DNA of 30,989 nucleotides, taken from positions 1-30,989 of IMG/VR virus record IMGVR_UViG_3300012940_000077; one strand, 5' to 3'. The position numbers and the translations under genes are program-made. This document shows, piece by piece, positions 6,018-24,387 of the stretch; within the stretch, counting starts at the first letter, position 1, and every line of letters starts with the position of its first letter. The DNA is from a virus. Lineage: Duplodnaviria > Caudoviricetes. Under the pieces are notes generated by a model that was not told the origin of the DNA, did no database searches, and was given only the letters and a program-made list of their open reading frames with translations.

Positions 6018-6392
6018 TCAGCGGTTGCCCTTCTTCATGTACCCGAGCTTGCGAGAGTTGCGCATCGAGGCCATCGTTCCGTGGGCGGTACCAACCCCGG
6101 CACCGATGGAGCTACCGGCCATCTGCGCTCCGGCGCTGCGCCCACGCGTGGCGAGCGCTGCGGCAGTTCCGCCGATGAGCGAGCCACCTGCGCCCTCCGC
6201 GACGCCGCGTCCCAGGGCCTTCAGGCCGACCTTGGCCTTCTTGCCGTCCTTGGCCTTGGAGCCCGCGTAGATGGAGCCGACCGGAGCTAGGCCCGCGTTG
6301 AGCGCGCCGCCGATCTTCTCGGTGCGGTTGAACTTCTTGTTGTCGGCCTTGCTCACGGTCTCGCCGTGGTCCACACCGAATGCGCTGATCAT
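6018..6392 (-). CDS. MISAFGVDHG-leader protein 1: small basic glycine-zipper protein (124 aa)
   Basis: Start reassigned to ATG 6392, which overlaps the protease stop (ATGA). Reads MISAFGVDHGETVSK then a basic Gly-zipper body. Confidence 0.75.
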   Translation of the reverse strand: MISAFGVDHGETVSKADNKKFNRTEKIGGALNAGLAPVGSIYAGSKAKDGKKAKVGLKALGRGVAEGAGGSLIGGTAAALATRGRSAGAQMAGSSIGAGVGTAHGTMASMRNSRKLGYMKKGNR

Positions 6393-7330
6393 GCCTCGAT
6401 CTCCACTTCCTGTCGTCGACCCGATCCGTGGATCGAGAACATCGGGCGGTCGCCCTTCTTCACGAGGTCCCAGGTCGCGTCGTCGTGGACCTGGAAGCCG
6501 ACCCACCACCCGGTGGGAGAGTTCGCCGGGAGGCCGAGGGCCTCCTTCTTCTCCGGCGTGATCACCACGGACTCGATGAGATCCGCGACGTGCTTGGGGC
6601 CTTCGCCATCGCGCAGGTGCATGTCGCCACCCTTGCGGGACTTGGAGATGTAGGCGTGCGCCGCCTTCTCGATCTCCTCGATGGTCACGTAGTCACCCTG
6701 GAGGTCGACCACGGGCTTGCCGTCCACCTCGGTGATGGAGGCCCAGCCGTAGACCTGGCGCTTGTCCTCCAGTGCCTTGGACACGCGGGCCTCGACCTTG
6801 AACGAGCCCGACCCTCGCGAGGCCGTGATCATCGGCTTCGGCAGCTTGCGAGCAGCGGTCTCTGCGTGGGAGAGCGCCTTGAGCTGCACCTTGCGGCGAG
6901 GGTCGAGCTCGTCCTTCTTGGCGACGGGCTTCTTGCGCTTGTCCGCGATGGACTTCGTGGACGCGGCGTCAGCGGAGACGTTGAACACCTGTCCGGCGAG
7001 CGCGGCACCAGCCAGGGGCACTGCGGCCTTCGGGCTCTTCAGCGCGCGCAGAACGCGCCCCTGGGGCTTGGGCCTGACCAGGCTGGTGCCGGGTCTACGG
7101 GTCCGACCAGCCTTGGATCGGACGTCACGGGCGAGGGCCGGGAGCGTCATTGCACCCAGCCCGGCAGAGGCAGCGTTGGCGGCGACCAGGCCCTTGTCCG
7201 TGTTGGACAGGCCGGACTCCTTCTTCTTCTTGGGCTCGCGAGACTTGACGATCTCCCAGGCCCCTTCCCCGTACAGGGCCTTGGCGACCGCCATGAACTC
7301 ATCGTGCTCGATGCGTCGCAGCTGTCCCAT
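6389..7330 (-). CDS. Prohead (capsid maturation) serine protease, XkdF/Peptidase_S78_2-like, with N-terminal basic extension
   Basis: C-terminal ~135 aa: RQVYGWAS...VDLQGDYVTIEEIEKAAHAY...GGDMH...IESVV...GWWVGFQVHDDATWDLVKKG...FSIHG, with the expected His and Ser. Start taken at ATG 7330 (MGQLRR); the start is uncertain. Confidence 0.85.
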   Translation of the reverse strand: MGQLRRIEHDEFMAVAKALYGEGAWEIVKSREPKKKKESGLSNTDKGLVAANAASAGLGAMTLPALARDVRSKAGRTRRPGTSLVRPKPQGRVLRALKSPKAAVPLAGAALAGQVFNVSADAASTKSIADKRKKPVAKKDELDPRRKVQLKALSHAETAARKLPKPMITASRGSGSFKVEARVSKALEDKRQVYGWASITEVDGKPVVDLQGDYVTIEEIEKAAHAYISKSRKGGDMHLRDGEGPKHVADLIESVVITPEKKEALGLPANSPTGWWVGFQVHDDATWDLVKKGDRPMFSIHGSGRRQEVEIEA

Positions 7331-7439
7331 GGCTACATCATGCAGATGCGCGCCAGACCCTCTTCCGGGTCTCCATACACTCAAGTCGGGATCATGAAAC
7401 GGTCCCACTGGTCAGGGCATCAAGCAGGGCGGAGAAGTT

Positions 7440-7853
7440 GTGACTGACGAAGCCGGAAGGACTCCGACTGCGTGGGAACTCCTGCGCACGATGGATCAGA
7501 TCCGTCAGAGTCAGGAACGCGTCGAGGCTCGGATGGTGACCAAGGACGAGTTCCAGGCTTGGCAGCAGGGAACCGACCGACGCTTCACAGAGCAAGAGCG
7601 ACAGATCTCCGACGCTCGCACGACGGCCGCTGGAGAGATGGCGAAGCAGGCAGCCAAGATGGACGCGATGGAGAAGCGCCTCATCACGGAGATCGAGAAG
7701 GTGGAGACGGACGCCGACACCAAGATCAAGGCAGAGGCGGCCAAGCGGGAGAAGCTCGAAGACCAGCAGCGCGACACACGGCTGCGAATCTGGGTGGGCA
7801 TCCTCCTCGTAGCAGCTGGGGTGATCATCCCCAAGATCCTGGAGCTGGTCTGA
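7440..7853 (+). CDS. Coiled-coil protein with C-terminal transmembrane helix (possible lysis accessory)
   Basis: 137 aa, GGAG RBS, GTG start. Helical body followed by IWVGILLVAAGVIIPKIL. Confidence 0.7.
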   Translation: MTDEAGRTPTAWELLRTMDQIRQSQERVEARMVTKDEFQAWQQGTDRRFTEQERQISDARTTAAGEMAKQAAKMDAMEKRLITEIEKVETDADTKIKAEAAKREKLEDQQRDTRLRIWVGILLVAAGVIIPKILELV

Positions 7854-7854
7854 G

Positions 7855-8577
7855 ATGTTCGGTCGCAAGGCAGGGGTTCTGGAAGAGGATCCCGATGGCG
7901 TGACGACGTACACGCCCCGCCGCTTCACCATCTGGCATGCCATCCTCATCCTGCTCATCGCCTCCATGCTGGGGATCTTCGTCTGGCTCCTCCAGCTGGC
8001 CACCACACAACAGCACCGCCTGGACCAGCAACGAGCGGACATCGAGTCCAACGAACAGGTCGTGGCAGACCTGCTCGCCAAGTACGAAGCCCTGTACCGC
8101 GAGGCATCGGGTGACGGTGACGTAGATGCGCCGTCCCCGGATGAGGTGCAGGATGAAGTAGAGGCACAGGCCGGACCCCAGGGTGCGACTGGTGCGCAGG
8201 GGCCACGAGGCGAGCGCGGACCGCAAGGCGACCCAGGGGCTCCGGGAACTCCCGGAGCGAAGGGAGAGACCGGTGCAACAGGCGCTACAGGTAGTGCAGG
8301 TCCTGCTGGGGCCGACGGTGCTGATGGTGAGCCTGGTTCTACTGGCCCGCAGGGACCTCAAGGGGAGCAAGGTCCGCAGGGACCTGCTGGTCCCGCTGGG
8401 CCTGCTGGTCCGAAGGGCGACACTGGCGCTGCGGGTCCGGCTGGCCCTGTCGGTCCGGCTGGTCCGACCTGCCCCGAAGGCTACGAGGTTCGCTTCGTCT
8501 GGCTCTCCGTCGCCAACGAGCAGTTCGGTGTCTTCTCCCGTCAGCCAGCGGCTATCTGCCAGCCGGTGACCCCCTAG
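7855..8577 (+). CDS. Membrane-anchored collagen-like protein
   Basis: N-terminal TM helix (FTIWHAILILLIASMLGIFVWLL), coiled coil, 33 Gly-X-Y triplets, and a C-terminal CPEGY...IC two-cysteine domain. Confidence 0.85.
   Translation: MFGRKAGVLEEDPDGVTTYTPRRFTIWHAILILLIASMLGIFVWLLQLATTQQHRLDQQRADIESNEQVVADLLAKYEALYREASGDGDVDAPSPDEVQDEVEAQAGPQGATGAQGPRGERGPQGDPGAPGTPGAKGETGATGATGSAGPAGADGADGEPGSTGPQGPQGEQGPQGPAGPAGPAGPKGDTGAAGPAGPVGPAGPTCPEGYEVRFVWLSVANEQFGVFSRQPAAICQPVTP
8173..8469 (+). repeat. Collagen (Gly-X-Y)33 coding repeat
   Basis: Uninterrupted GXY from GPQ to GPT, counted from the translation. Confidence 0.9.
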
Positions 8578-10661
8578 TCCGGGTAGAGGTCCAGGGGGTC
8601 GATGTCGTACATGTGGTACGGCAGCGGGATCCTCTGGTCTCTGCTGGCCCACTCCGAGACAGAGCCGATGTCCGAGGAGAGCACCTTCCACTTGCCCGGG
8701 TTGGTGAGCATCCGTCCCCAGGCGTGCTCGTCGTAGTGCGTCGCGTTGATCTTGTTGGCACGCGCGATGACCGGGGTGTTATCGCTGACCAGCAGGTGCA
8801 GACCGAGGTTCTGCGCCACGTCGTACGCAGGCACGGAGATCTCCGCGAAGGTCCACCCGTCCGGCCCCTCCTGCTCAGCGTGGATCAGCACGTCCTCGGA
8901 CTCACGACGGGTCAGACCGTGCGCCGACTCCACCAGAGCGACCTCGAAAGCATCGACAGTCACATGCAGCCGCATGTCGCCCTGGATGTAGGAGACGACA
9001 TTCTCCCCGATGCTCTCCTCGTGATGAGACATGGACTGGAACTCGTCGTGGATGTTATCCGGGTGCAGGAATGCGTCCCAGTGGTCGATGACCGCCTGCT
9101 GGAGCGCCTGGTGAGCCATGCCCTTGGCCACGGTGTAGAACGGCGTGAACTCGTCCGTCATGACGGTATCCCCGTCGCCCCAGTCGTCCGGGCCGAGGAC
9201 GGCGTAGATCGGCTCGCCGTTCGGGCTGTTGATCCAGACGTCGGACTCGGAGGCGAAGTTGTCCTCGTCGAAGTCCTCGGCCGGACCGCTGACTCGGATG
9301 TCTGCCGCCTTGGCGCGCACCTTCTCCAGCGCGAGCTTGTTCGAGAGCTTGATCGGCGCGAGCTCGATCTTCTCCTGGGCCACGCCACCGGCCGTGATCT
9401 TGCCGCCCGCGGAGATCTTCTCCCCGGCCTTGATCCGGCCCCCAGCCTTGATTCTCGGCTCTCCAGCCTTGATCCTTGCTTCGCCCGCGCGGATGGGCTC
9501 CGGCGTCTTGAGCATGTCGGCCGCCTGGTTGAGGATGGCGGACACCCGGGGGTCGGAGAAGTCGACCTCGGGCTCCTTGTACCGCGCGCGGGCCACCGGC
9601 TTGAGCCGAGGCTTGGAGTTGCGGGACTCGCTGGTGGCGAAGCGCCCGTTGCGGTCCCGGTCGAACGGGTCCCCGCCCACGGCCTTGTGCACGACCCCGA
9701 AGGCGGACTTGGCCAGGGCGAAGCGGTCCTTGGTGTTGTACGAGTCCAGGCGAGCCTGCTCGGACATCACCAGCACCACCCGGCAGCGGCAGCGCGGGTG
9801 CGAGGACGGAGCCAGGATCTTGCTCCCGTCCGGCAGGGTGAAGAGCTCGTTCACCAGGACACGGCGGTGGTGCATCGGCCCGCAGGTCGGGCACACCCGC
9901 TCGTCGTCGGCGGTGATCCACTCCTTCTCCTGGAGCGGGCTGATCTCCCCGCGGTGGGCCTGGTAGCTCCAGTACAGCGCCTTGGCGGCGTTGGAGGACA
10001 GGTGCGCCTCGGTGTCACCGATAGTGGCCGCACGCTCCTGGATCGCTCGCGCGAGCAGGTAGTCGACGCGATCCGCGATCACGTTCGGGCGCTTCTGGGA
10101 GGTGAGCCCGGCCTTCTCCGGGGGCGGGGCCAGCCAGATGTTCACCAGCGACTTCATCGTGCGCGGGGTCACCCCGAACGCATCGATGGTGCGGTCGATG
10201 GCGACACGCGTAGCCACGCGCCGGTTGATCTGCGCCTGGACGCCCTGGATGAGCGCCTGGGTGCTGACGTTGTGGATGCTGGTGCCCAGGGAGTTGGCGT
10301 AGGAGTTCGCGCTGTCCGCCACCCATGCGTCGCTGGGGCGAGTGGTGCCCGCCTCGCGCAGCCCGATGTAGTACCCGGCCATCAGCGCAGGAGCGGCCAC
10401 CGCGACGAACTTCGGCACGTACAGCCGGAAGATGCGGGTGGCCAGCTCCTGGAGCGCCTCCGGGGCGGGGAGGTTCTCGCGGGTCTCCTCCTTGAGCCGA
10501 CGGCGCACGAACGTCCGGTACAGCAGGAACGCGCCACCCAGAGCGAGGGCCACCTCGTCCAGGTTGCTGCTGCGCCGACCAGCTGCCGAGATGCGCTCCG
10601 CGAGCTGCTGCTCGTAGGGAGTGAACTCGTCAGCGGAGATGACCTCTGTCGTCTCGCTCAC
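8574..10661 (-). CDS. MuF (SPP1 gp7-like) head morphogenesis protein with long C-terminal extension
   Basis: KEWITADDERVCPTCGPMH...PSSHPRCRC is the MuF signature (about 9780-9930). About 390 further residues follow it. Confidence 0.8.
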   Translation of the reverse strand: MSETTEVISADEFTPYEQQLAERISAAGRRSSNLDEVALALGGAFLLYRTFVRRRLKEETRENLPAPEALQELATRIFRLYVPKFVAVAAPALMAGYYIGLREAGTTRPSDAWVADSANSYANSLGTSIHNVSTQALIQGVQAQINRRVATRVAIDRTIDAFGVTPRTMKSLVNIWLAPPPEKAGLTSQKRPNVIADRVDYLLARAIQERAATIGDTEAHLSSNAAKALYWSYQAHRGEISPLQEKEWITADDERVCPTCGPMHHRRVLVNELFTLPDGSKILAPSSHPRCRCRVVLVMSEQARLDSYNTKDRFALAKSAFGVVHKAVGGDPFDRDRNGRFATSESRNSKPRLKPVARARYKEPEVDFSDPRVSAILNQAADMLKTPEPIRAGEARIKAGEPRIKAGGRIKAGEKISAGGKITAGGVAQEKIELAPIKLSNKLALEKVRAKAADIRVSGPAEDFDEDNFASESDVWINSPNGEPIYAVLGPDDWGDGDTVMTDEFTPFYTVAKGMAHQALQQAVIDHWDAFLHPDNIHDEFQSMSHHEESIGENVVSYIQGDMRLHVTVDAFEVALVESAHGLTRRESEDVLIHAEQEGPDGWTFAEISVPAYDVAQNLGLHLLVSDNTPVIARANKINATHYDEHAWGRMLTNPGKWKVLSSDIGSVSEWASRDQRIPLPYHMYDIDPLDLYPD
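9384..9494 (-). repeat. Six tandem I-[KRST]-A-G peptide repeats
   Basis: IRAGEAR-IKAGEPR-IKAGGR-IKAGEK-ISAGGK-ITAGG in the MuF extension. Confidence 0.8.
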
Positions 10662-10671
10662 GGATCACACC

Positions 10672-13600
10672 CTAGTCCCAGGCCGGGCTCGACCCGAAGA
10701 TCGCCTTCAGCGAGGCGCGGTCCATCGGGTCGTCAGAGCCCACGTCCTCGGCCAGCTGCTTGGCCTCAGCGAACTTGCCCTGCTTCACCAGGTTGCGGAC
10801 CTGCTTGAGGTCCTCGCCCACGGTGTACCCCTCGTCCCGGCGCATCTTCTGCTCGATGGAGTGGAGCATCGTCGAGGCCATCTCGATGTCGCTCTGCTCC
10901 CCGCTCTCCAGCAGCGCACGCGCGGGCTTGGTCTGCGCCTGCTGCGGAAGCTGCGGAGCCTGTGCCTGGCGGGCCGCCACCGGGTCAGGGTCACGCAGCA
11001 TCTTCCCTGCGGTGGGCGCGTCCTGCCGCTGGATCTGGTTGCTCTGGAGCGCGCGGATGCGCTCCAGCCCCTCGGCTGCCTCGGAGTACTGACGGACCAG
11101 GGAGTCGCGCAGGCCGTCGTCGGAGTAGGCGTTGGTGAGCTGGCGCTGCTTGGCGTCGGTGTAGGAGTCGTTCCAGCCGAGCGCACGGCCCGCCTGGGCG
11201 ATGTTCGTCTGCGCGTCCACCAGCGAGTTCGAGCGCAGGTTCTGCGCCACCAGGCCCAGCGAAGCGGCAGCGGTGGCTGCACGCTCGGAGTCGGTGACGC
11301 CCTGCACCTCCTGGAGGACCGGACGCACCCGGTTGTACTGCTTGGTCAGCTCGCGCTGCACCATGTCCTTGTCCGCCCCCGCCTGGTAGGCAGGCTCGGA
11401 GAACTGGTAGGGCGCGGTGGAGCGACGGCCCAGGTGCTGCTCGGCGTTCCAGCCCGTGCCGCCCAGGGAGCCGGACAGACCGGAGTAGCCACGCATCCCG
11501 TCCTTGATGCGCTGGCCCAGCTGAGCTGCCGCAGGGTCGCCACCAGCCAGCTCGTCGCCCAGCTGCCCCAGCTCGGTCTCGATGGCGATGCGCTTGGCCG
11601 GGTCCGACCACGCAGCGTCGAAGTCCTTGGCCGCCTCGGACAGTGCCGGGTAGGAGCCGTCCGCGAACTCCACGCGCGACGCCTGGCTCACCAGACCCTG
11701 GAGCGCACCGCGCTGCTGCTCCTCCAGCGCCACCTTCTGGCGCACGGCTGCCCGTGCTGCTGCATCCCCCCGCGGGGCAGCAGCCGGGGTAGCCGTGGCC
11801 GTCTCCGTCGCGGTCTCACGTGGCCCGCCCGCGGTGCGCCCACGGGTGGGGTTATTCTCCCAGTTCTGGAAGTTGGTGTTGGACGCGGCGATCTTGCCCG
11901 AGCCGGTGATGGACGAGTCGTAGTACCCCTCCAGCGCCTCCTCGGGGCGGTTGTACCGCGGCTTGACGTAGCCCTGGTCCGAGCCGCCCTTGAAGCGGCG
12001 ACGCAGCTCCGGCTTGGCAGCCTCGTCGGCGCGCTCGCCTGCGGCGTTCATGGCGTCGTCGCGGTGGGCGAAGGAGACCGAGGCGATGTAGTAGGGGTAC
12101 TGCTCCTTGAGCGCCTCCAGCGCAGCGGCGTAGCCCTCACCGTCGAGCTGGTAGAACCGCGAGCGCTTGTCCTCCAGGGCAGCGTCCATCAGCTCGGCAC
12201 GGTACTGGCGGTACTTGCGCTCGTCGCCCTGCGCGGCGTCACGCGCCTCGCTCTCCAGGTTGGCCAGCTCGGTGCCGGTCAGCTGGGGGTTCTCCTTGTA
12301 GTCCTTCACGCGCCGGTCGTACTCCGCGCGGATCTCCGCCTGGCTGTACACGCTCGGCGGGAAGTCCCGCTCGGTCTCCTCCAGGAGCTGGCCACGGATC
12401 GCCGGGTCCAGGGGCTGGCGCTCGATCTGCCCGCCCTTGAGCGCGTCCAGGGTCTTCTCGTAGCGGTCGACCATCGAGGCGGCCTTGTCGTTCATCCGAC
12501 GCCCGCCACGGAAGTCGTCCTCGAAGTTGATGGTGAACACCCCGGAGTTGGACACCACGGTGACCCGGCGAGCCCCGCTCACCAGGCCGGTGTAGATGTC
12601 CTCGCTCGTGAGTCCGCCCTTGGAGCGGGTGCGCACGTACTGACCGCCCTGGAGCCCCTTGAGGTTCTTGAGGTTGAACGGCAGGTAGTGGTCGTCCGCG
12701 AAGCCCACGGCCTGCGTGGCGATGTTGCCGTCGCGGTCGATGATGACGCCCTCGGACGGAGGGATGCGCCCGGACTTGCGCTGGATCTCGCTCAGGCGCA
12801 GGTTCGGCAGCCGGTTGAACAGGTAGCTCGTCGCCGCGTCGGCCGAGCGCATCTGCTTGACCTCGGGGCTGGAGATCGACCGCCCGGACCGGAAGGTGTT
12901 CAGCTCTTCCTCGCTGACCCCGCCTTCGCGGATGCGCATGTCCTCGGTCTGGCGGATGAACTGCTTGCGCATGTCCAGGAGAGCGGCGTCCGGTGCACGC
13001 TCGGTGCCCCGGTAGCGGTAGGCCGTCTTGCGCATCTGCGGGCCGACGACCTTCTCCGCCTCCGGGCCGTACTGACCCACGAACTCCCCGAAGCGCGCAG
13101 CGGTGTTGGCCTTGGAGCCCGCGGGGGTCACGTCGGCCACGAGCTTGGAGCCCGCCTCGATGCGGCGGTACGTGCGCGCGTTGGTGCCCACCGGGTCCTT
13201 GGACGCGTCGTTCCAGCGCTGCTCGAACGCCGACCCCTTGGAGCCCAGCGCGGACACCGTGTCGAAGGACGCTGCCGCACGCTCGGTGCGAGTGGCGTCA
13301 CGCGGCTCGTCGAAGCGCGTGGCCACGAGGTTGTGCGTCGCGGGGTTCCACCCGGTGATGTGGTCGAGCGAGGAGACCTTGATCTCCGACTGACGGCCCG
13401 TGGACTTGTTCTCCAGGATGGCGCGCAGGTTCGACCCGTCCCGGCGCGTCATGGCGTCCATCGCCTCGGCCAGCTGGAGGTACTGCTGCTGGTAGGCGCT
13501 GCGGTCCGTCGAGGAGAGCTTGTCCTTGCGGTTGTACGAGCGCGACTCGCGCGCCAGGCCCTTGGCCGAGGGGATGCCCTGGGCACGCTCACGGCTCTTG

Positions 13601-13944
13601 GGCATCTTGCGCTTGGTGCGGTCGGTGCGCACGCGCGACTCGACGGTGGCGAACCGGCCACTCTTGTCGCGGTTGTACTTGTCATCGCCCAGCGCCTTGC
13701 TCACGACGTCGACCACCAGGCGCTCGTCGACAGCGGACTTGGAGACCATCCGGTCCAGGTCGTCCACGATGGACTTGTGGATGCGGGTGCTCAGCGACGA
13801 CACCACGCGCGCGTTGTTCGTCAGGTCCTCCACCAGGAGGTCGTGAGCGACACAGCGCACGAACATCTCAGCAGTGGCGTCGTCCATCTTCATCACGACG
13901 TCGTAGGCCCGCGCTGCTGCCTCGCGGTTGAAGTGCTGGTCCAT
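10672..13944 (-). CDS. Large putative internal virion protein (1090 aa) with a degenerate JAB/MPN-like segment
   Basis: Start reassigned to ATG 13944, which has a GGAGG RBS. Contains VSK sites, an RDKSGRFAT motif shared with the MuF protein, and EGVIIDRDG...VRTRSKGGLTSEDI...RRVTVVS. Confidence 0.65.
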   Translation of the reverse strand: MDQHFNREAAARAYDVVMKMDDATAEMFVRCVAHDLLVEDLTNNARVVSSLSTRIHKSIVDDLDRMVSKSAVDERLVVDVVSKALGDDKYNRDKSGRFATVESRVRTDRTKRKMPKSRERAQGIPSAKGLARESRSYNRKDKLSSTDRSAYQQQYLQLAEAMDAMTRRDGSNLRAILENKSTGRQSEIKVSSLDHITGWNPATHNLVATRFDEPRDATRTERAAASFDTVSALGSKGSAFEQRWNDASKDPVGTNARTYRRIEAGSKLVADVTPAGSKANTAARFGEFVGQYGPEAEKVVGPQMRKTAYRYRGTERAPDAALLDMRKQFIRQTEDMRIREGGVSEEELNTFRSGRSISSPEVKQMRSADAATSYLFNRLPNLRLSEIQRKSGRIPPSEGVIIDRDGNIATQAVGFADDHYLPFNLKNLKGLQGGQYVRTRSKGGLTSEDIYTGLVSGARRVTVVSNSGVFTINFEDDFRGGRRMNDKAASMVDRYEKTLDALKGGQIERQPLDPAIRGQLLEETERDFPPSVYSQAEIRAEYDRRVKDYKENPQLTGTELANLESEARDAAQGDERKYRQYRAELMDAALEDKRSRFYQLDGEGYAAALEALKEQYPYYIASVSFAHRDDAMNAAGERADEAAKPELRRRFKGGSDQGYVKPRYNRPEEALEGYYDSSITGSGKIAASNTNFQNWENNPTRGRTAGGPRETATETATATPAAAPRGDAAARAAVRQKVALEEQQRGALQGLVSQASRVEFADGSYPALSEAAKDFDAAWSDPAKRIAIETELGQLGDELAGGDPAAAQLGQRIKDGMRGYSGLSGSLGGTGWNAEQHLGRRSTAPYQFSEPAYQAGADKDMVQRELTKQYNRVRPVLQEVQGVTDSERAATAAASLGLVAQNLRSNSLVDAQTNIAQAGRALGWNDSYTDAKQRQLTNAYSDDGLRDSLVRQYSEAAEGLERIRALQSNQIQRQDAPTAGKMLRDPDPVAARQAQAPQLPQQAQTKPARALLESGEQSDIEMASTMLHSIEQKMRRDEGYTVGEDLKQVRNLVKQGKFAEAKQLAEDVGSDDPMDRASLKAIFGSSPAWD

Positions 13945-13980
13945 GTGTACCTCCGGACTCATCATCTCGTGGCTGTCGCC

Positions 13981-14277: not shown

Positions 14278-14285
14278 CTGTTCTC

Positions 14286-14423
14286 CTAGCGCCAGTAGGG
14301 GACAGGCTCCAGCGTGGCCACGTCCATGATCGGTTCGAGTGTACGCACGACGGGAAGGGTCGGGATCGGTTGCGGCGCGGTGATTCCGCGGATCTCGACC
14401 TCGATCTCCAGTTCGTCGGCCAT
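14286..14423 (-). CDS. 45-aa hypothetical protein missing from the ORF track
   Basis: ATG overlaps the upstream stop (TGATG). Reads MADELEIEVEIRGITAPQPIPTLPVVRTLEPIMDVATLEPVPYWR and fills the gap exactly. Confidence 0.65.
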   Translation of the reverse strand: MADELEIEVEIRGITAPQPIPTLPVVRTLEPIMDVATLEPVPYWR

Positions 14424-16411: not shown

Positions 16412-16417
16412 GGCGGC

Positions 16418-16768
16418 CTACGCAGCGGTGACGGGGATGGAGACCGTGACCTTGATCTGCCCCTGCGGGTTGATCGTCGTGGACGCGGACAGCGGGTTGC
16501 CACCACGGAACGTGCCGCCCGTCGCAGCCGTCCACACACCGAAGTGCGTGTAGGTGCCCGCGGGAACGTCGAACGTCACCTCGGCGGCCGTTGCGGTACC
16601 ACCCGAGGCAGCGCTGAAGCTCAGCGCCTTGCGCGCGTACGCAGGGCTGCCACCGCTCGCCTCGTTGGCTCCCGTGGTGCCGGGGTTGGCGGTGTGCAGC
16701 GACACGTACGCCAGGCGCGACGCCTGGTGGTCCGCGATGGCGTTCCGCTCAGAGTCGAGCAGAGGCAT
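16418..16768 (-). CDS. Small fibre-associated structural protein (paralog A)
   Basis: 116 aa with SLHTANPGTTGANEASGGSPAYARKA...FDVPAG...HFGVWTAATGG. Confidence 0.75.
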   Translation of the reverse strand: MPLLDSERNAIADHQASRLAYVSLHTANPGTTGANEASGGSPAYARKALSFSAASGGTATAAEVTFDVPAGTYTHFGVWTAATGGTFRGGNPLSASTTINPQGQIKVTVSIPVTAA

Positions 16769-16771
16769 CTG

Positions 16772-17164
16772 TCACTCCTCGATCTCGTAGGGGTGCGGCT
16801 CGAAGTTGTCGACCTTGCCCGGGTCGTGCTGCTCAGCGGGCTGGACGACGACGATCTCGCCAGTGGGAAGCGGCGAGTTCGCGGAGGCCACGGTCTGTCC
16901 GTCCTTCTCCTGGACGGCCACGGCGTTGTACTCCGGGGTCTTGGGGACGCCCAGGAGGTACCCGAACGCCGGGTGGACCTTCACGGTCAGCCAGTTCACG
17001 AGCGCGTTGTACGCGGCCGACAGGACGACGAAGAGGATCGCGTTGAGCTGCGCCTCCGCGCCATCAGGCAGGGTCACACCCTGGTTCACGAGCCAGGTCA
17101 CTGCCAGGCCCACGACCAGGGCGACACCCGTACGGATGCCGCTGATCAGTGCGTTGTACAGCAT
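16772..17164 (-). CDS. Holin
   Basis: Two TM helices; IRT...AYNALVNWL...PAFGYLLG..KTPEY pattern of actinophage holins. Directly downstream of the endolysin. Confidence 0.8.
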   Translation of the reverse strand: MLYNALISGIRTGVALVVGLAVTWLVNQGVTLPDGAEAQLNAILFVVLSAAYNALVNWLTVKVHPAFGYLLGVPKTPEYNAVAVQEKDGQTVASANSPLPTGEIVVVQPAEQHDPGKVDNFEPHPYEIEE

Positions 17165-17174
17165 GTCCCTCTCC

Positions 17175-18278
17175 TCAGAAGGTTCCCGCGTTCAGGCGGG
17201 CCTGAAGCGTCTTGGCGGTGGTGGGGCCGAAGTAGCCGTCCTGCTTGATGCCCAGGTAGCGCTGGAGGGCCTTGATCGTGTTCGGGCCGAGGTAGCCGTC
17301 GGCGGTGACCTTGAGCTTGCGCTGGAGGGCACGCACGACGTCCGAGCCGCCCGAGCCGTAGTTCACCGAGAACAGGTTGGTGTGGTACTTCCGGTCCGCG
17401 TTGCCCTGACCGGAGATCACCCCGTCCTGCTTGGTGCCCAGGCGAGCCTGGAGACGCTTGACCGAGGCCGGGCCGAAGTTCCCGTCGAGCTTGAGCTGGT
17501 TGCTCAGCGGCTTGACGTTCTTCAGCGCGCTCGTGGTCAGCGGCCCCGGCAGGCCGTCCTGCACGAGCCCCTTGGACTTCTGGTACGCCTTGATGGCTGC
17601 CTGGGTCTGCGGGCCACGAACGCCGTCGATGGCACCCTTGTACAGGCCCAGCTTCTTGAGCTCCTGCTGCACCCAGGTGATGTGTGCGCGCGAGAAGCCC
17701 GCGTTGAGCTGGTCGACGGTCTTGCCGGGGTTGACCGGGTTGGACACCGGGATGGACGCGCCACCCGCGGCACGCACCACAGCGTCGAACTGCGCCACAC
17801 GGTTGTCGCCGGGGCAGACCTTGCCGCGCGGCCCCCAGGTGTCGCCGCCCGAGAGCCGCCACGGGTCGCAGCCCATGCGGTGGTAGCCCACGCCGCGCGA
17901 GCTCTTCTTGGAGTTGCCCATGTCGGTGAGCAGCACCCCGTGGACCTTGTTCAGCCACTTGAGCAGCGCGGCCAGGGACGCCATCTGCGCGTCGGTCCAC
18001 GTACCCGAGCCCAGGCCCTGGGTCTCGATACCGATGCCGTAGAGGTTGCCCTGACGCTGGGTCCAGGCGATGAGGTTCGTGTCGAGGTACTGCTCGACCG
18101 TCCCGTCGTACTTCACGTAGAAGTGCGAGGACGCCGAGGAGGCCGGGTTGTTGAACCAGCCGTACAGCGAGTTCGCGCCACCAGCGTCCACGTGCAGGAT
18201 GGCGCACGTGGTACGAGGGCGCACTCCGCCGTGGTTACGGCTGAGGGGCTTGTAGACCGCGCCGCTGTAGATGGCCAT
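17175..18278 (-). CDS. Endolysin: N-acetylmuramoyl-L-alanine amidase (Amidase_2) with peptidoglycan-binding repeats
   Basis: ILHV...SSHFYV..DG.VEQY...AWTQ..GN..GIGIETQG...YHR...KVCPG, followed by repeated DGxxGPxT..LQ motifs. AGGAGG RBS. Confidence 0.92.
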   Translation of the reverse strand: MAIYSGAVYKPLSRNHGGVRPRTTCAILHVDAGGANSLYGWFNNPASSASSHFYVKYDGTVEQYLDTNLIAWTQRQGNLYGIGIETQGLGSGTWTDAQMASLAALLKWLNKVHGVLLTDMGNSKKSSRGVGYHRMGCDPWRLSGGDTWGPRGKVCPGDNRVAQFDAVVRAAGGASIPVSNPVNPGKTVDQLNAGFSRAHITWVQQELKKLGLYKGAIDGVRGPQTQAAIKAYQKSKGLVQDGLPGPLTTSALKNVKPLSNQLKLDGNFGPASVKRLQARLGTKQDGVISGQGNADRKYHTNLFSVNYGSGGSDVVRALQRKLKVTADGYLGPNTIKALQRYLGIKQDGYFGPTTAKTLQARLNAGTF

Positions 18279-18333
18279 GGGGTCCTCCTAGAGAGTCACC
18301 ACCATGTTCTCGGCGCTGTCTACAGGGTCATGG

Positions 18334-18507
18334 CTACATCCCTTCGGTCTTCTTGCCCGACTTGCCCTTCTTCCTCCTCAGCTTGGTGCCTGGAGGGCAG
18401 GCGTGCGAGTTGAGATCAGCAGAGTCCGGTGACATCTTCTTGAACTGCTCTTTGGGCTGAGCGTCCACGTTGCTGACCTTGGCGGGGATCTCGTTCGGGA
18501 ACTGCAT
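18334..18507 (-). CDS. 57-aa protein with basic C-terminus
   Basis: Start taken at ATG 18507, just after the fibre stop. Reads MQFPNEIP...EQFKKMSPDSADL...KLRRKKGKSGKK. Confidence 0.55.
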   Translation of the reverse strand: MQFPNEIPAKVSNVDAQPKEQFKKMSPDSADLNSHACPPGTKLRRKKGKSGKKTEGM

Positions 18508-18508
18508 G

Positions 18509-21490
18509 CTACGGCCCTTCCTCGTACATAGCTGCGACCTCGGCACCCGTGAGCGCCTTGTCCCAGATGCTGACCTTGCGGAAGCCTGCGTTGGTCATCG
18601 GCTCGATGAGGAAGCTGTCCGGCGTGGTGACCGTCCCCGTCTTGGGACCGGTGTTCACCTGCGCCCCGTCCACGTACAGGGTCAGCGCAGTGCCGTCGTA
18701 GACGCCCACCACGTGCCGCCAGTACGGCGCGGGGATCACGCCACCGCCCGTGCTCACCTGCGACAGCCGGTTGTAGGAGCCGGTGTCGGTCTCCACCATC
18801 ACGCGGCTGAGTGAGTACGTCGTGGAGCCCAGCGTGCGCCAGCCGCTGTACACCTCGGCCACGCGCGTCGTCCCGGCGAGGAACGCCACCGACGGTGTGG
18901 TGTTCGCCTGCGGGGTGTAGACCCAGAACCCGACACTGAACTCGTTCAGGTTGAGGAAGCCGTTGGGCGCGGTGGCCTGCCCCGTGGTCGAGGATGTCAG
19001 CGCCTGCTTGCCGCCCAGCAGGGCGAAGGTCGCGGAGCTGATCTCCAGCGAGCGCCCCGCGATCATGTCCACCTCGGGGTTCGGGCCATCGAATGTCCAC
19101 AGAGCGGCCAGGCCCTCGGGCGGCGGGACGATCCCGAAGTTCAGCGGGTACTCCTCACCGTCCACGTAGGCCGTCAGCGTCACGGGGTACTCCACGCCGT
19201 TGAACAGCAGCGTGACATTGATGTCACGCTCCACGTCGCCCACGTAGCCCTTGGCCGCGGCATCACCTGCCACCGGGGAGGTCAGGGACAGCACGCCCGC
19301 GCCGCCCATGGACAGCACGCCGGACAGCGCCGGGGTGCCAGCAGCGCCCAGCGAGCCCACGCCCGTGATGTTGAGGCCACCAGAGACCGCAGGCGTCCCG
19401 GTGAAGGACAGCGTGCCCTCCCCGCCCATGGACAGCGCCCCGGCGACCGCGATGTGCCCGGACAGGGTGAGCGTGCCGTCGCCGGACACCGTGAGCATCC
19501 CGGTGAAGGCCGACGCACCCATGGACAGCGTGCCGGTGCCGATGATGTCCAGCGCGCCCTGGAGGTTGGGCACGGCCACGAAGTTCAGCTCTCCGGTGGC
19601 AGCGCGGGCCAGCTCACCCACCAGGTGCGGGGTGGGCGAGGTCGTCTGCGTGCCGCCTCCGGTGAAGGAGAGCCCGCCTCCGGTGGTCATCGCCGTCTGC
19701 TGGCGCGCTACGGTGCCGCCCGCTGTGATGCCCAGTGCGCCCCCAGTGGTCATGCCAGCCTGTGCACGGCCCACAGTGCCGCCCCCGGTGATGCCCAGGG
19801 AGCGCGAGGCACTCATCCCGGTCTGGGTGCGTCCCAGCGTCCCGGACGCCGTGATGGACAGGCTGCCCTCGTAGTGCTCGGCCACGGGCTGCTCGTAGAC
19901 CAGGGCGGCGTCCACGAAGGCGAAGTTGGAGACCGGCGTGCGTCCGCCGTTGTGGACCACGACGAGGCCGTCGGGGAAGTCCGGCCCGAGGTTGCCCAGG
20001 TGCCAGTCCAGACCGTCGGTGCTGGTGACCGGGCTGCCACCCGGGAGCTCGACGGTGAACCGGGACAGGTGCTCGAAGGTCGTCGCGTCGTACACGTGGT
20101 AGGAGCTGTCGCCCTGGGAAGAGACCAGCAGCAGCGCCCGTCCCGTGGTGTCCCGGGCGATGGCCACGTCCTCGATGTCTGCCACCAGGTTGCTGCCCAC
20201 CAGGTCCACAGCTGTGCGCGTGCTGCCCCCGGACGGCGAGGCGCTGTAGCGGTACAGGCCCACGTCCTCCTGGGAGGCGAACAGGTAGCCGGTGGCGTCG
20301 TCGGCAGCCAGCCCCTCCACCACGGACGCCAGGCTGACCGTGCGTGCCGCAGAGCCCATGGTGACCGACTCCCCCGAGCGGGTCAGGGGGTACTGGTACA
20401 TGTTGCGCGCCGAGGTGTCGTCCGGACCACGCTGGGTGACGAAGGCGTACACCTGCCCATCGCTGTGCACGTACAGGCAGGTGCCGTACGGCTCCCACCC
20501 GAACGCAGAGCTCGTACCCGCAGGGGTGAGCGCCTTGGTGGTTCGGTTGAGCCAGTAGAACCGGAGCAGGAAGTCTTCCCGGTCGCTGGTCATGACCAGG
20601 ACACGGTTGTCCCATCCACTGACCCCGGTCAGGTCACGGATGTCTACAGAGTTGGCTGCGCCGTCCAGGCGAGACGACAGGATGTCGCCCTGGAGGTTGT
20701 AGACGTACAGGCCACCGCCCACCTCCTTGTTGGTCGTGATGACCACGGAGGATGCGGGCGTGGTGGCGTCGCGGAAGATCGCCGCCCCGTCGGCCACGTC
20801 CCCGGTGAAGCCGGAGTACGTCTCCGTCTCCAGCGTCGCCTCCAGCGGCTCGATGACCGAGCCAGTCTCTGCGATGGCCAGCGTCCAGCGCTTGGTCTGG
20901 TACCACCCCGAGTTCGTCGTCCACTGCCCCGAAGGGGACTGCCCCGGCGATGTCTGGGTGCGGTAGGCGATAGAACCCTCGCGCTCCTGAGCGTCAGTGG
21001 CCCGGGTCCAGCCGGAGGGCACGGTCGGGCTCTCGGAGCCAGAGCCCACTGCCATGCCCGTCAGCAGCATGACGTTCTCAGCCGTGACGTTCACCTGCGG
21101 GATGGGGTGGGTCTCGACCGACGAGGAGCCCCATGCCGTCGTGGCGTAGCCGTTGCTGATCAGGTTCGAGCCACGCAGGTGCACCCAGGCCAGATCACCG
21201 CGCCGCGCGGTCGCACCCCACCCGAAGGAGATCGAGGACGGCACGGACGCGGGAGCTTGGTACCAGTACACGCCGCACGACACCCCGACCCCGATGCCGT
21301 TCATCGCCTCCAGCGAGGTGGTGTTCGCGGGCAGCGTGAGCTCGGCGTTGACCGTCGAGTTCGTCGTGATGAAGCAGACGATCACGTCACCGGTCTGCAC
21401 GCCCTTGCCGGTCAGCGGCAGGACGAACGAGGTCGAGGTCCCGGTGGACGGGTAGGGAACCGTCCCCGAGGCCAGCAGCGTGATCGCCAC
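18509..21490 (-). CDS. Large virion fibre with beta-propeller phytase-like domain and C-terminal LamG-like domain
   Basis: 993 aa. N-terminal beta-sandwich (GVQTGDVIV); phytase motifs TNK..GGLYVYNLQG, EPYGTCLY, VEGLAADD, QEDVGLYRY, LVADIE, VSSQGDSSYHVYD, TDGL, GPDFPDGL (about 19895-20845); GxLxxxGxGTL stalk; LamG-type WRHVVGVYDG...LYVDG...IWDKALT. Confidence 0.8.
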   Translation of the reverse strand: MAITLLASGTVPYPSTGTSTSFVLPLTGKGVQTGDVIVCFITTNSTVNAELTLPANTTSLEAMNGIGVGVSCGVYWYQAPASVPSSISFGWGATARRGDLAWVHLRGSNLISNGYATTAWGSSSVETHPIPQVNVTAENVMLLTGMAVGSGSESPTVPSGWTRATDAQEREGSIAYRTQTSPGQSPSGQWTTNSGWYQTKRWTLAIAETGSVIEPLEATLETETYSGFTGDVADGAAIFRDATTPASSVVITTNKEVGGGLYVYNLQGDILSSRLDGAANSVDIRDLTGVSGWDNRVLVMTSDREDFLLRFYWLNRTTKALTPAGTSSAFGWEPYGTCLYVHSDGQVYAFVTQRGPDDTSARNMYQYPLTRSGESVTMGSAARTVSLASVVEGLAADDATGYLFASQEDVGLYRYSASPSGGSTRTAVDLVGSNLVADIEDVAIARDTTGRALLLVSSQGDSSYHVYDATTFEHLSRFTVELPGGSPVTSTDGLDWHLGNLGPDFPDGLVVVHNGGRTPVSNFAFVDAALVYEQPVAEHYEGSLSITASGTLGRTQTGMSASRSLGITGGGTVGRAQAGMTTGGALGITAGGTVARQQTAMTTGGGLSFTGGGTQTTSPTPHLVGELARAATGELNFVAVPNLQGALDIIGTGTLSMGASAFTGMLTVSGDGTLTLSGHIAVAGALSMGGEGTLSFTGTPAVSGGLNITGVGSLGAAGTPALSGVLSMGGAGVLSLTSPVAGDAAAKGYVGDVERDINVTLLFNGVEYPVTLTAYVDGEEYPLNFGIVPPPEGLAALWTFDGPNPEVDMIAGRSLEISSATFALLGGKQALTSSTTGQATAPNGFLNLNEFSVGFWVYTPQANTTPSVAFLAGTTRVAEVYSGWRTLGSTTYSLSRVMVETDTGSYNRLSQVSTGGGVIPAPYWRHVVGVYDGTALTLYVDGAQVNTGPKTGTVTTPDSFLIEPMTNAGFRKVSIWDKALTGAEVAAMYEEGP

Positions 21491-21500
21491 GGTGCTCCGA

Positions 21501-21848
21501 TCAGGCGATGGTGCAGGTGAGGTTCAGCGTGTAGGTGCCCTGGGAGCCGAACGCCTGGGAGGTGACCGTGCCGCCCTCCAGGTAGTTGCCCGTGCCCGAG
21601 GCGGCCGTGTGCACGCCAGCGGCCACGACCGTGGTGCTCGCGGGGACGTCGAAGGTCACCGAGGCCGTGACGACCCCGTTGCTGGGCGCGCTCCAGGTGA
21701 TCGCCTTGCGGGCATAGGCGGGCGAGCCACCGCTGACCTCGGTGCCCTGCGAGGCACCCGCGGACGTGGTGTACAGCGCAGCGTGGGTTGCGGCCGTGCC
21801 GAAGGCGGTGGCCAGGGTGTTCTTGGCAGCGGTGGCGTTGAAGGCCAT
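21501..21848 (-). CDS. Small fibre-associated structural protein (paralog B)
   Basis: 115 aa. EVSGGSPAYARKAITW...VTFDVPA is shared with 16418..16768. GAGGAG RBS. Confidence 0.75.
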   Translation of the reverse strand: MAFNATAAKNTLATAFGTAATHAALYTTSAGASQGTEVSGGSPAYARKAITWSAPSNGVVTASVTFDVPASTTVVAAGVHTAASGTGNYLEGGTVTSQAFGSQGTYTLNLTCTIA

Positions 21849-21858
21849 GGTGTGCTCC

Positions 21859-22446
21859 TCAGTAGCGGACGATCAGTACGGGGTCAGGGGCGTCTTCAGG
21901 AACCGGTGCCCCTGTCGCCAGGAACAGCACGGGTGCGTACGACTGCATTGTCGCCAGGGCGTCCAGTGCGGCCTGCGCTGCGTTCTCGGCTGCGATCCGC
22001 GAAGACTCGGTGACCACGACCGTGGTGCCCGGGTTGGAGGGGATGGGCGTGACCAGCGCGAGGTCCTTACGCACCCCGCCCTCGACCAGCAGGTCGAAGT
22101 CCGGGATCGTCACACCCTGGATCTCGAAGCGGACCTTGTACGTCCACCCCGAGGGGTTCGCGTCCGGGTCGTCCCCGGCGAGCAGCCAGACGTCGCGCTC
22201 GCCCTCCTCGTCGATCAGGTAGCCCTCGTCGTCGATGGTGCACTCGATGGGCTTGGGGGAGACGAACACCGGGGCCGGGGACGCCGCTGCCACGATGACG
22301 TGCGACGGAGCCGGGGTGAAGCGCACCTTGCCCACCGCTGCCTTGCCGTCCGGCTCACGCCCGACGTCCGGAGAGTCGGCCACGGCGAGCAGGAAGCGTC
22401 CGCCCACCTGGCCGTAGGACAGCAGTGCAGGAAGGTCAGTTGCCAC
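21859..22446 (-). CDS. Minor structural protein (actinophage fibre-anchor-like domain)
   Basis: Start reassigned to GTG 22446 (GGAGG upstream). YGQVGGRFLLAVADSPD...GKVRFTP...DDEGYL...NPSGWTYKVRF is a pattern seen at fibre N-termini. Confidence 0.6.
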   Translation of the reverse strand: MATDLPALLSYGQVGGRFLLAVADSPDVGREPDGKAAVGKVRFTPAPSHVIVAAASPAPVFVSPKPIECTIDDEGYLIDEEGERDVWLLAGDDPDANPSGWTYKVRFEIQGVTIPDFDLLVEGGVRKDLALVTPIPSNPGTTVVVTESSRIAAENAAQAALDALATMQSYAPVLFLATGAPVPEDAPDPVLIVRY

Positions 22447-23416
22447 GAGACTTCCTCCGGTGCTCTGCGACCTTGCGGCCGTCCTTGGTCTGGTACGCGG
22501 CCACCACGACGCCACCAGTGCCCGCTCCTGCGGCCAGGGAGGCACGCTGGATGTTCCGGCGGCGCTTGTACCGGGCGTAGCCCTCCTTGACCCCGTAGCG
22601 GCCGTCGGCGTCGATCTTGTCCTGGGTGCGCTTGAACGCCGAGCCCGTGTTGGCTGCCTGCTCGAACGCGCCCGCGCGCATCCCGTGGTAGGTCTGCCCG
22701 AACAGGCCGGAGGCGCGTTCCGACTTACCCTTCTCGCGGATGGCCTTGACGCGCAGCTTGTCTGCCTTGTCGCCGTTGGCCCGGTTCATCTGGGTGTGCG
22801 AGCGCAGCAGTGGCGAGCGGTGGATCTGGGAGTGCGTGCCCGAGAGCGTGTCCGCACGGGCCTCCTCGCGAGCCAGCTTCACCGGGTCGGACTGGATCTG
22901 GGCCAGCCGCCACGAGGAGCGCCCCTCGGAGTGCAGGAGCTCGTGCTGGACGGTCTTGCCGTCCCTCTTGTCCGAGATCACGTAGGTGCGCCCGCCCTTG
23001 GCACTGCCGTAGCGCAGCGGGTGTGCGTTCTTGTACTTGCCCGACTTGGTGCCCACGAACTCGATGGCCTCGCTGGGCTTGCCCGACAGGTCACGCCCGG
23101 CGAGCTGGGACAGGTGCTCGGTGACCATCGCCTTGTTCTGAAGCACCTTCGCCTGCTCTGCGTCCAGCCCCGTGGACCGGTAGCGCCCGCCCATCAGACC
23201 GTCCTTGCTCGCTGAGAACGCAGCGTCCGCCGCCTTGTCCGCAGGGACCTTCATGCGCAGCAGTGCGTCCACGAAGTTGTACGGGTCGTGCCCTGCGGCC
23301 GTGCGGGCATCACGAAGCTTCTTCGCGCCGACGTCCACGGCGCGGACGAACTTCCCGTCGATCAGGGACTTGGCGAACTCGTCCCGCCCGTGGTCGACAC
23401 CGAACGCACTGATCAC
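22436..23416 (-). CDS. MISAFGVDHG-leader protein 2: basic protein with HExxH zinc-metallopeptidase motif
   Basis: Leader MISAFGVDHGRDEFAK. HELLH at 22931-22945 with downstream REEARAD. C-terminal Gly-rich hydrophobic segment. Confidence 0.7.
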   Translation of the reverse strand: MISAFGVDHGRDEFAKSLIDGKFVRAVDVGAKKLRDARTAAGHDPYNFVDALLRMKVPADKAADAAFSASKDGLMGGRYRSTGLDAEQAKVLQNKAMVTEHLSQLAGRDLSGKPSEAIEFVGTKSGKYKNAHPLRYGSAKGGRTYVISDKRDGKTVQHELLHSEGRSSWRLAQIQSDPVKLAREEARADTLSGTHSQIHRSPLLRSHTQMNRANGDKADKLRVKAIREKGKSERASGLFGQTYHGMRAGAFEQAANTGSAFKRTQDKIDADGRYGVKEGYARYKRRRNIQRASLAAGAGTGGVVVAAYQTKDGRKVAEHRRKSRGN

Positions 23417-23425
23417 GTGGTCACC

Positions 23426-23749
23426 TCACACTGCCTCGACGGCAGCGAGGCGCGTCGAGATGTCCTGGAGCATGGCCTGGAGGTTGGCACCCGTGATCCC
23501 CGACACCGTGCCCGTGAGCGCGGTGAAGGTGTGGGTGTGGTTGCCCGCCGCCGCCGTGGTGGCCGTGGTGCCGATGGCCCGGATGGACGGCGTACCCGCG
23601 GCCTGGACAGAGGTGAGCGCGGCAGGGATGCCGGTGATGTCACCCCACGCGACGCTGCCTCCCACCTCCAGGCCGTTGAGGACGTCGATCACCTCGTTGA
23701 TCTTGATGGCGAGGGAGCGCTCGCCGTACTGCTCTACCTTGTCGACCAT
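23426..23749 (-). CDS. Short fibre-like protein (107 aa)
   Basis: Start reassigned to ATG 23749 (TAATG overlap). VAWGDITGIP and AAAGNHTH are fibre-shaft motifs. Confidence 0.6.
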   Translation of the reverse strand: MVDKVEQYGERSLAIKINEVIDVLNGLEVGGSVAWGDITGIPAALTSVQAAGTPSIRAIGTTATTAAAGNHTHTFTALTGTVSGITGANLQAMLQDISTRLAAVEAV

Positions 23750-24387
23750 TATCCGTTTCCCTTCACATCGATGACGTATCCACCAGACTTGGTTCGTCGA
23801 GGCTTCCTGCCCGTACCGCGCAGGTCGTCCTTCACCAGCGACTCGCCTAGGTAGCCCTTTCTCGGGTGCTGCTTGGCGCTGACGCTGCCTGGTGCTGCGC
23901 GCAGAGTCACGCGCGTGTTGCGCCACGGATCGGTCGCGTCTGCTCCGTACCGCCCAGCCGTACTGATGCTGTCAGTGAAGGACTTCAGCTCGCCCTTGCC
24001 CCGCCTGCCGTCTCCGATGGGCTTGCCACGCGAAGCGCGGCGTGCCATCTTCTTGGCGTCTCGCGGAGACACGGCGATGCCACGGTACAGATGTGATCCG
24101 CTCGGCTTCTCCTTCACGCCATCCAGATCGCCACTCAGCGTCCCTCGACGCTCCGGTCCTCGGTTGCTCGTGCTGAAGGGTCTCTTGAGATCACGCACCG
24201 CAGCACGCTTGATCCTGTCCGGGTCGCTCCACATCGAGTAGCCACCAGGAACCTTTGAAGCATCAGCCGCCTTCTGACGCGCCTTGCGCGACACAGCCAG
24301 CTTCGCGGAGGTGGACAGACGACCGATGTCCAGCCCCTTCTCCACGAGGTCGGACGCGCCGTGGTCGACGCCGAATGCGCTGATCAC
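23749..24387 (-). CDS. MISAFGVDHG-leader protein 3: putative ADP-ribosyltransferase (R-S-E type)
   Basis: Leader MISAFGVDHGASDLVEK. Motif order HLYRGI...KSFTDSISTAGRYG...VTLR...GESLV. GTG start overlaps the portal stop. Confidence 0.6.
   Translation of the reverse strand: MISAFGVDHGASDLVEKGLDIGRLSTSAKLAVSRKARQKAADASKVPGGYSMWSDPDRIKRAAVRDLKRPFSTSNRGPERRGTLSGDLDGVKEKPSGSHLYRGIAVSPRDAKKMARRASRGKPIGDGRRGKGELKSFTDSISTAGRYGADATDPWRNTRVTLRAAPGSVSAKQHPRKGYLGESLVKDDLRGTGRKPRRTKSGGYVIDVKGNG

Follow-up and report, generated by a model that had tools for sequence, protein, structure and literature searches.

Why should three genes of a single phage, unrelated over the rest of their length, begin with the same ten amino acids? 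The question is raised by the IMG/VR virus record IMGVR_UViG_3300012940_000077 (Duplodnaviria; Caudoviricetes), of which positions 1 to 30,989 were analysed (this whole stretch is called 'the window' below). Here the peptide MISAFGVDHG opens three minus-strand genes, and an earlier note on this DNA had proposed that it is a cleavable packaging tag by which basic, effector-like proteins are loaded into the phage head. From the window and related viral sequences, we identify the leader as one form of a conserved, portable peptide tag, composed of the core S-x-[F/W]-G-[V/I]-[D/E]-H and a lysine 'fence', Ile/Val/Phe-x-Lys. We estimate at roughly two in three the probability that this is a removable capsid-loading tag, acting in both the loading and the clipping of its cargo.

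Three identical leaders in the window

The three occurrences were confirmed, with ATG as the start codon of the leader at 6363–6392 and GTG for those at 23387–23416 and 24358–24387, and the codon differences claimed among the three DNA copies are exact. The annotated starts are credible, since two of the genes overlap by 4 bases the stops of the protease gene and the portal gene, and the leader at 23387–23416 is preceded by GAGG with a 9-base gap. The first lysines also stand in the hydrophobic-x-Lys context previously described, at residues 15, 16 and 17 in VSK/A, FAK/S and VEK/G, respectively (a slash marks the predicted cut), and after the leader the proteins are indeed unrelated, their mature parts belonging to different BLAST clusters. 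The chance of any identical post-start 9-mer being common to two of approximately 50 genes is about 3e-8. DNA copying is not excluded from the window alone, because only 3 of 30 bases distinguish the leader at 6363 from that at 24358; the family data exclude it.

A position-specific scan of the six frames of the window (threshold, 7 bits) gave 30.8 bits for the three leaders, 15.2 bits for a segment of the MuF minor head protein, 7.1 bits for one marginal match, and nothing else. Thus, of the two internal SAFG cores that had been related to the leader, the one in MuF stands, whereas the SAFGR of a very basic protein of 662 amino acids (aa), which scores below 7 bits and is absent from its closest orthologue, was rejected as a tag. 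A further candidate, SAFGW in a 993-aa protein, was rejected after the same scan. The MuF-junction segment was present in 3 of 40 relatives, in the Trp form in two Trp-tag relatives and in the Phe form in one Phe-tag relative.

The tag across the viral family

Degenerate DNA patterns for the peptide, which required a start codon and said nothing on the sequence after the tag, matched 34 and at least 163 stretches in IMG/VR; counts for the family are given here and below among the matches listed. With the window included, at least 212 distinct motif sites were obtained. A start codon lies at most 4 codons away in 187 of them, a number inflated because the patterns required a start; the remaining sites have a start 5–7 codons upstream (4), lie at a contig edge (1), or are C-terminal (17) or internal (3). 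The tag is thus not purely the N-terminal leader that had been described, and its C-terminal and internal copies are also set off from the cargo by a Lys site.

As the earlier note held, it is the peptide and not the DNA that is conserved. The 168 sites compared contain 162 distinct 30-mers, their Ser codons are drawn from both families (AGY, 116; TCN, 52) and all four Gly codons are used. Variation in the peptide itself consists of conservative swaps (V/I, D/E, F/W), and MISAFGVDHG, identical in the three copies of the window, is the commonest form of the family (30 of 168 sites).

The expectation that the motif would open diverse cargoes was borne out: at least 171 distinct full-length proteins are N-tagged, and their mature parts form at least 76 (E 1e-3) to 94 (E 1e-6) unrelated clusters, which supports the portability of the tag over unrelated basic proteins. 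The mature charge is positive in 148 of 152 non-redundant proteins, with a median of +14, whereas the net charge of the leader is positive in none (0/152); approximately 48% of mature cargo residues are Gly, Ala, Lys or Arg. Four of these 152 sequences, tiny C-terminal tags called wrongly, were omitted from the Pfam scan, in which three of 149 tagged cargoes passed the cut-off (one GNAT and two domains of unknown function, none from the window). An uncharged Gly/Ala/aliphatic run of at least 15 residues occurs in 93 of 148 cargoes, including the 124-aa cargo of the window; such runs would suit insertion into membranes, but simple filler of low complexity may have them as well.

Eight near-complete genomes, picked for carrying the tag, contain 2–8 tagged genes each, as counted with our own caller of open reading frames (ORFs), which may miss genes. 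All 39 tagged non-core genes lie on the strand of the capsid gene, mostly among the head and neck genes. Among annotated phages, a tblastn search with a 24-residue tag query gave no match (its sensitivity is low), and no tag was seen in the 31-kb head regions of Laroye and ValentiniPuff or, over 5.5 kb of head genes, in the cultured Roseobacter phage CRP-6, whose protease and scaffold are arranged as in the present family.

Other tagged or protease-fused cargo was noted at five loci (L180:5164-7647, L049:4896-6254, L322:2476-4821, L112:325-681 and L036:11049-11876), with domains that include ParB-like DGNHR motifs, a GNAT domain (above the Pfam cut-off) and a possible ADP-ribosyltransferase (ART)-like domain. 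At L317:1125-2492 (genome G007), an internal tag lies in the C-terminal tail of the portal protein, with a Lys site on either side and 70 further residues after it.

A lysine site shared with scaffold and protease

The first lysine after the tag, at residues 10–23, belongs to an [IVF]-x-K motif in all 150 distinct viral leader matches. The same pattern in cellular genomes, where 99 single scattered hits were taken as a chance control rather than as prophages, is followed by [IVF]-x-K in only 5. In metagenome contigs, excluding copies identical to the window, the site is present in 62 of 63 leaders (35 of 36 among sites new to the analysis), the one miss being a contig end. The distance from tag to Lys varies, mostly within 10–14 residues, and the residue two positions before the Lys (P3) is I, V or F in 181 of 183 cases.

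This motif recurs in the head proteins. In the scaffold-like protein of the window, 10 of 17 lysines lie in [IVF][SAEGT]K, against a mean of 1.1 and a maximum of 6 in 10,000 shuffles; the protease has 5 sites against 1.75 expected, in its long basic N-terminal region, and the major capsid protein has none at its 18 lysines. Over the eight genomes, the observed and expected numbers are 50 versus 5.2 for the scaffold (ratio 9.7), 40 versus 18.6 for the protease (2.2) and 6 versus 7.5 for the capsid protein (0.8), with a ratio of 1.2 for 967 other genes; portal, MuF and a 1097-aa protein were not enriched overall in these genomes. Since the motif is abundant in the scaffold, occurs beside the protease domain and is lacking in the capsid protein, we read it as a protease cut site, likely that of the XkdF-type head protease. 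That this protease would be Lys-specific is suggested by the digestion of scaffolds by prohead proteases (described in the available portions of PMC7411985) and by the cut at K103/S104 made by the related protease of HK97.

Conversely, the site is avoided in the mature cargo: 114 short mature cargoes contain 8 sites against 42.4 +/- 6.3 expected, and none of 500 shuffles was as low, whereas 60 untagged short basic ORFs contain 15 against 15.6 expected. Because their mature parts avoid the site, the tagged proteins would seem to meet the protease and hence to enter the prohead; of the indirect signs that the cargo lies within the prohead, we take this avoidance to be the best.

Several further features of the two proteins were observed. 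The true start of the protease is probably nearer 7330, and from there its N-terminus (7330–7240, minus strand) carries a conserved leader, a helix followed by [L/A][Y/F]G-x-E-[I/L/V]-x-K, also found in tagless relatives, which may serve to load the protease itself and be a relative of the tag. Residues 1–33 of the scaffold (3880–3978, minus strand) form a conserved DEISLVDxxANQ segment that ends at a Lys site. This segment is invariant across 45 aligned scaffolds, is present in phage CRP-6 and matches inside a PHROG head-protease profile. The last strand in proteases of the HK97 type looks similar, which raises the possibility that the protease is split and that inserted cargo genes separate its two halves. 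In the scaffolds of L374 and L385–L404, a Phe-tag-rich clade, GK/SAFF stands right after a Lys site; the window has ENPF nearby.

Phenylalanine and tryptophan forms of the tag

Eighty loci were picked by the capsid protein alone, and a quick capsid tree was computed. No Phe tag was found near the capsid gene in the closest loci (76–85% capsid identity), most of which bear S-x-W-G-[VI]-[DE]-H instead. The sister of the window in this quick tree (85% identity; SH-aLRT, the Shimodaira–Hasegawa-like likelihood ratio test, 95) has the Trp form in the gene that follows the protease gene, in the 326-aa cargo's orthologue and in MuF, whereas the window has Phe throughout. A search with the Trp pattern gave 24 distinct matches, 17 of them followed by the Lys site; the other 7 are non-basic and appear to be chance matches. 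Several loci are all-Trp (3–4 tags), others all-Phe, and some are mixed. A shared binding pocket would be the simplest reading of this switch.

Proposed mechanism and alternative explanations

According to the capsid-loading reading, the late genes would be co-translated, and the tag would dock otherwise unrelated basic cargo onto a prohead component, where the cargo would be enclosed. The aromatic-Gly core would bind one head component, by analogy with T4 most likely the scaffold (a complex prediction of scaffold and tag peptide scored 0.01, which counts neither way). The XkdF-type protease would then cut the scaffold, its own propeptide, polyproteins and the tags after [IVF]-x-K; the small acidic tag pieces would leave, the basic mature proteins would stay with the DNA, and some mature cargo may be released into the host with it. 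This delivery, given loading, has about even odds and is the least supported step. More ambitiously, the whole could be a plug-in cargo system, in which a seven-residue, position-independent, excisable tag would bring into the head, for release when the phage infects, a fast-turnover cocktail of enzymes and basic peptides that act on membranes (over 75 families, with 2–8 or more such genes in each genome), and in which the aromatic anchor of the tag would switch between Phe and Trp genome-wide in step with one head receptor; this fuller picture we advance only tentatively, as less probable than its converse.

Several observations weigh against loading. Of the 80 capsid-picked loci, 40 show neither a Phe nor a Trp tag within 10 kb, full 21-kb loci included, and the scaffolds of these 40 carry the same Lys sites; the tag may thus be dispensable in the family or lie further away, and as two of the window's three tags are themselves approximately 20 kb distant from the capsid gene, the limited size of the loci may account for some of these absences. 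The family of the 662-aa protein has a C-terminal tag in one clade, with many relatives, and is untagged in others. Most cargoes are short and of low complexity, nearly all falling below the Pfam cut-off, which weakens the effector reading. The site class was derived from the tags themselves, and the control ORFs came from our simple caller. Phe and Trp tags occur mixed in one genome, which makes the switch only a tendency, and a search for residues tracking Phe/Trp in capsid protein, scaffold, protease and cement yielded a few candidate columns and nothing decisive. Finally, no cultured phage proved to be a close relative.

Some of these facts would suit other explanations. The cargo could be structural, neutralizing or spacing DNA or tuning head assembly rather than acting on the host; loading and clipping would then be real, and the difference from the preferred reading would be one of purpose alone. 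The charge and the Gly/Ala/Lys/Arg composition of the mature proteins fit such a role, as do the approximately 1000 internal proteins within T4 DNA reported in the accessible text of PMC3012670, and because relatives have a tape measure and a tail tube, no ejected conduit would be needed. Yet the 76–94 unrelated clusters and the enzyme-like motifs (the HExxH family, GNAT, ParB-like DGNHR) fit a role in conflict, and the long uncharged runs also speak against it, so that we hold a structural role possible, if doubtful. The tag might alternatively be a protease-docking (exosite) motif: drawn by their charge, basic proteins would condense on the acidic scaffold and so reach the interior of the prohead, and the tag would do no more than recruit the protease that releases or activates them. 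Strongly basic cargo, a strongly acidic scaffold and untagged members of the 662-aa family agree with this, and because the scaffold of one clade reads K/SAFF right after its site, SAF may be a prime-side recognition sequence. However, a tag that serves only its own removal has little purpose on cargoes of 60–120 aa with a single site, and the scaffold in the clade of the window lacks SAFF although tags are present; docking therefore appears improbable to us.

Sorting of the tagged proteins elsewhere than to the head (tail, membrane, a host protease or a secretion route) is less probable still. Some tagged genes do have neck genes as neighbours or lie upstream of the portal gene by several kb, and hydrophobic runs are present in many cargoes, but the acidic leader is unlike a signal peptide, the same segment lies inside MuF and, in one genome, in the portal tail, and the Lys site of the tag matches that of the scaffold. 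The last alternative, that the conserved 5' ends are a nucleic-acid element (acting in translation, in repressor binding or as a joint at which gene cassettes recombine) with the peptide incidental, could invoke the near-identity of two window copies and the insertion of tagged genes at varying places. It is largely refuted by the diversity of 30-mers and of Gly and Ser codons, by the conservative residue swaps, by the in-frame Lys site coupled to the tag over varying distances and by the in-frame C-terminal copies, and we give it hardly any credence.

Cargo proteins and other genes of the window

The features of the window are collected in table 1. The three cargoes are stand-alone genes, without fusion to MuF, portal or a multi-domain carrier, and none matches Pfam or PHROGs.

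Table 1. Tag-related features and head genes of the window, all on the minus strand.
Feature	Positions	Strand	Remarks
Leader 1, predicted propeptide	6348..6392	-	tag and spacer to Lys15 (VSK/A)
Leader 2	23369..23416	-	tag and spacer to Lys16 (FAK/S)
Leader 3	24337..24387	-	tag and spacer to Lys17 (VEK/G)
Internal tag-like segment in MuF	9684..9716	-	LAK/SAFGVVHK/A; between MuF domain and rest of protein
124-aa cargo	6018..6392	-	mature net charge +15; Gly/Ala-rich uncharged run; directly behind protease gene
326-aa cargo	22436..23416	-	net charge +27; HExxH at 158-162, downstream Glu184/185
212-aa cargo	23749..24387	-	net charge +26; orphan; directly behind portal gene
Major capsid protein	1710..2708	-	phrog_1005, E 1e-89; without propeptide
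Cement/decoration protein	2724..3140	-	PF09956
Acidic scaffold-like protein	3160..3978	-	by position and net charge -34; coiled helices and small beta domain at residues 41-76 (model pLDDT, predicted local distance difference test, 77)
662-aa very basic protein	4026..6014	-	six site motifs; without proper tag in the window
Prohead protease	6389..7408	-	XkdF/Peptidase_S78_2 domain at residues 209-333, PF14550, E 3e-18
MuF minor head protein	8574..10661	-	PF04233
Portal protein	24384..26339	-	PF06074, phrog_113

For the 326-aa cargo, described earlier as metallopeptidase-like, a zincin-like metallopeptidase is plausible: H158, E159 and H162 and the downstream Glu are invariant in 10 aligned tagged relatives, and a profile of the family retrieves 17 proteins. 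Its Atlas structure neighbours are of the Peptidase_M78/MPTase type at template-modelling (TM) scores of 0.4–0.5, below the acceptance bar, and it has no Pfam or PDB match. The ART claim for the 212-aa cargo fares less well. By eye the order of the R-S-E motifs is right (LYRG 100, SFT 136, GE 181), and language-model feature hits to clusters with ADPrib_exo_Tox (20% of members, 0.90) and Mod_ADP_RT (0.88) are borderline. Neither a homologue nor a match in Pfam or the PDB was found, the single-sequence model is poor (pLDDT 51), and a pairwise comparison with the ART-looking domain of a relative was not significant; nor was a longer, carrier-fused form found, which is weak evidence. We thus regard it as a weak candidate for an R-S-E ADP-ribosyltransferase. 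The 124-aa protein, proposed as a glycine-zipper cargo, looks zipper-like by eye, without a Pfam match, and in the nearest relative the gene at its position bears a Trp-type tag.

The 662-aa protein is likely a cargo polyprotein; a conserved G-x-S/T-Y motif closes the members of its family, in which, as in the protease propeptide, hydrophobic Gly/Ala helices lie in pairs between basic segments. The identity of the scaffold is an inference from position, charge and site enrichment: no named match was found, its model's structural neighbours are unnamed phage proteins with none in the PDB, and it has no match among cultured phages. Among the latter, capsid protein identity reaches 47% at most, and the protease has two matches.

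The window has a G+C content of 67% and nearly all of its genes lie on the minus strand, with endolysin and fibre genes interspersed among those of the head. Because relatives of 76–83 kb encode a tape measure of approximately 2000 aa and a major tail protein, the family is a long-tailed one. The best full-length matches of the endolysin are in Brevibacterium phages (30%), those in Lactococcus and Microbacterium phages being also numerous, which points to a Gram-positive, probably actinobacterial host; the label 'actinophage' is likely, but unproven.

Among the other genes, two on the plus strand between MuF and protease (7440–7853 and 7855–8577) encode, by eye, one protein that has a coiled coil and is hydrophobic over a C-terminal stretch and another that has Gly-x-y collagen-like repeats. 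The 993-aa protein (18509–21490, minus strand), among the fibre genes, combines a phytase-family beta-propeller with a C-terminal LamG domain. The 1097-aa protein (10672–13965, minus strand) is conserved in the head region and belongs to no known family; like MuF, it carries the motif D-x-[FY]-x-RD-x-x-GRFA following a Lys site.

Comparison with known systems and implications

The prohead protease of phage T4 cuts after Glu, at L/I-x-E, whereas the cut predicted here follows Lys. The present family further differs from T4 in consisting of long-tailed phages of approximately 80 kb with an XkdF/S78_2 (PF14550) rather than a gp21-type protease, a separate scaffold and an uncut capsid protein, and in a tag that is also C-terminal and at joints and has Phe and Trp forms. 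The likeness is that a propeptide of 10–20 residues, common to diverse and fast-changing N-tagged proteins, ends at a predicted prohead-protease site, as does the capsid-targeting sequence (CTS) which gp21 removes from the T4 internal proteins IPI–III and Alt (PMC7411985, PMC3012670, PMC9958956; the passages available differ on whether IPI and Alt share it); Alt is also the precedent for an ART cargo. By analogy, the tag would work like the T4 CTS, yet with its different protease family, Lys site and free position it is not a member of the T4 system.

In phage P1, according to the accessible part of PMC9024508, an N-terminal stretch of DarB suffices to target a reporter to the capsid; the likeness lies in a short N-terminal address, shown there with a reporter and predicted here, while the Dar proteins share no N-terminal consensus and here one consensus marks dozens of families. 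The HK97 maturation protease (gp4/S78), which cuts at Lys/Ser (K103/S104), belongs to a related fold family, but HK97 has a fused scaffold and the portion of PMC10275583 consulted describes no tagged cargo set. In SPN3US, gp245 removes A-x-E propeptides, short and long, from several head proteins by cutting after Glu; in the sections of PMC10052503 available these are mostly long and are not one shared tag. MuF-fused effectors and polyvalent proteins, with zincin-like peptidase, ART and ParB-like domains and proposed to be injected (PMC5512222, in part), are head-region cargo of similar domain types, although their carrier is a domain fused within a large protein, in contrast to the seven-residue tag on small stand-alone genes found here.

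A full-text search, outside which most subscription papers and supplements fall, returned no published description of the motif or of shared leaders in uncultured phages; with the same scope, the literature on XkdF, Lys-cutting prohead proteases and actinophage internal proteins returned no description of the tag. How proteins are selected for the interior of phage heads is called mysterious even for T4 (PMC9958956, in the passage available). In a simple head composed of capsid protein, scaffold, protease and portal, this question becomes testable through a minimal consensus tag that occurs naturally in hundreds of variants, through its natural Phe/Trp switch and through a head protease predicted to be Lys-specific. 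By means of the tag one can also search for injected phage proteins that are absent from the family libraries, 146 of the 149 cargoes scanned having no Pfam match above the cut-off, and the tag would offer a means of packaging for phages whose hosts are probably Gram-positive.

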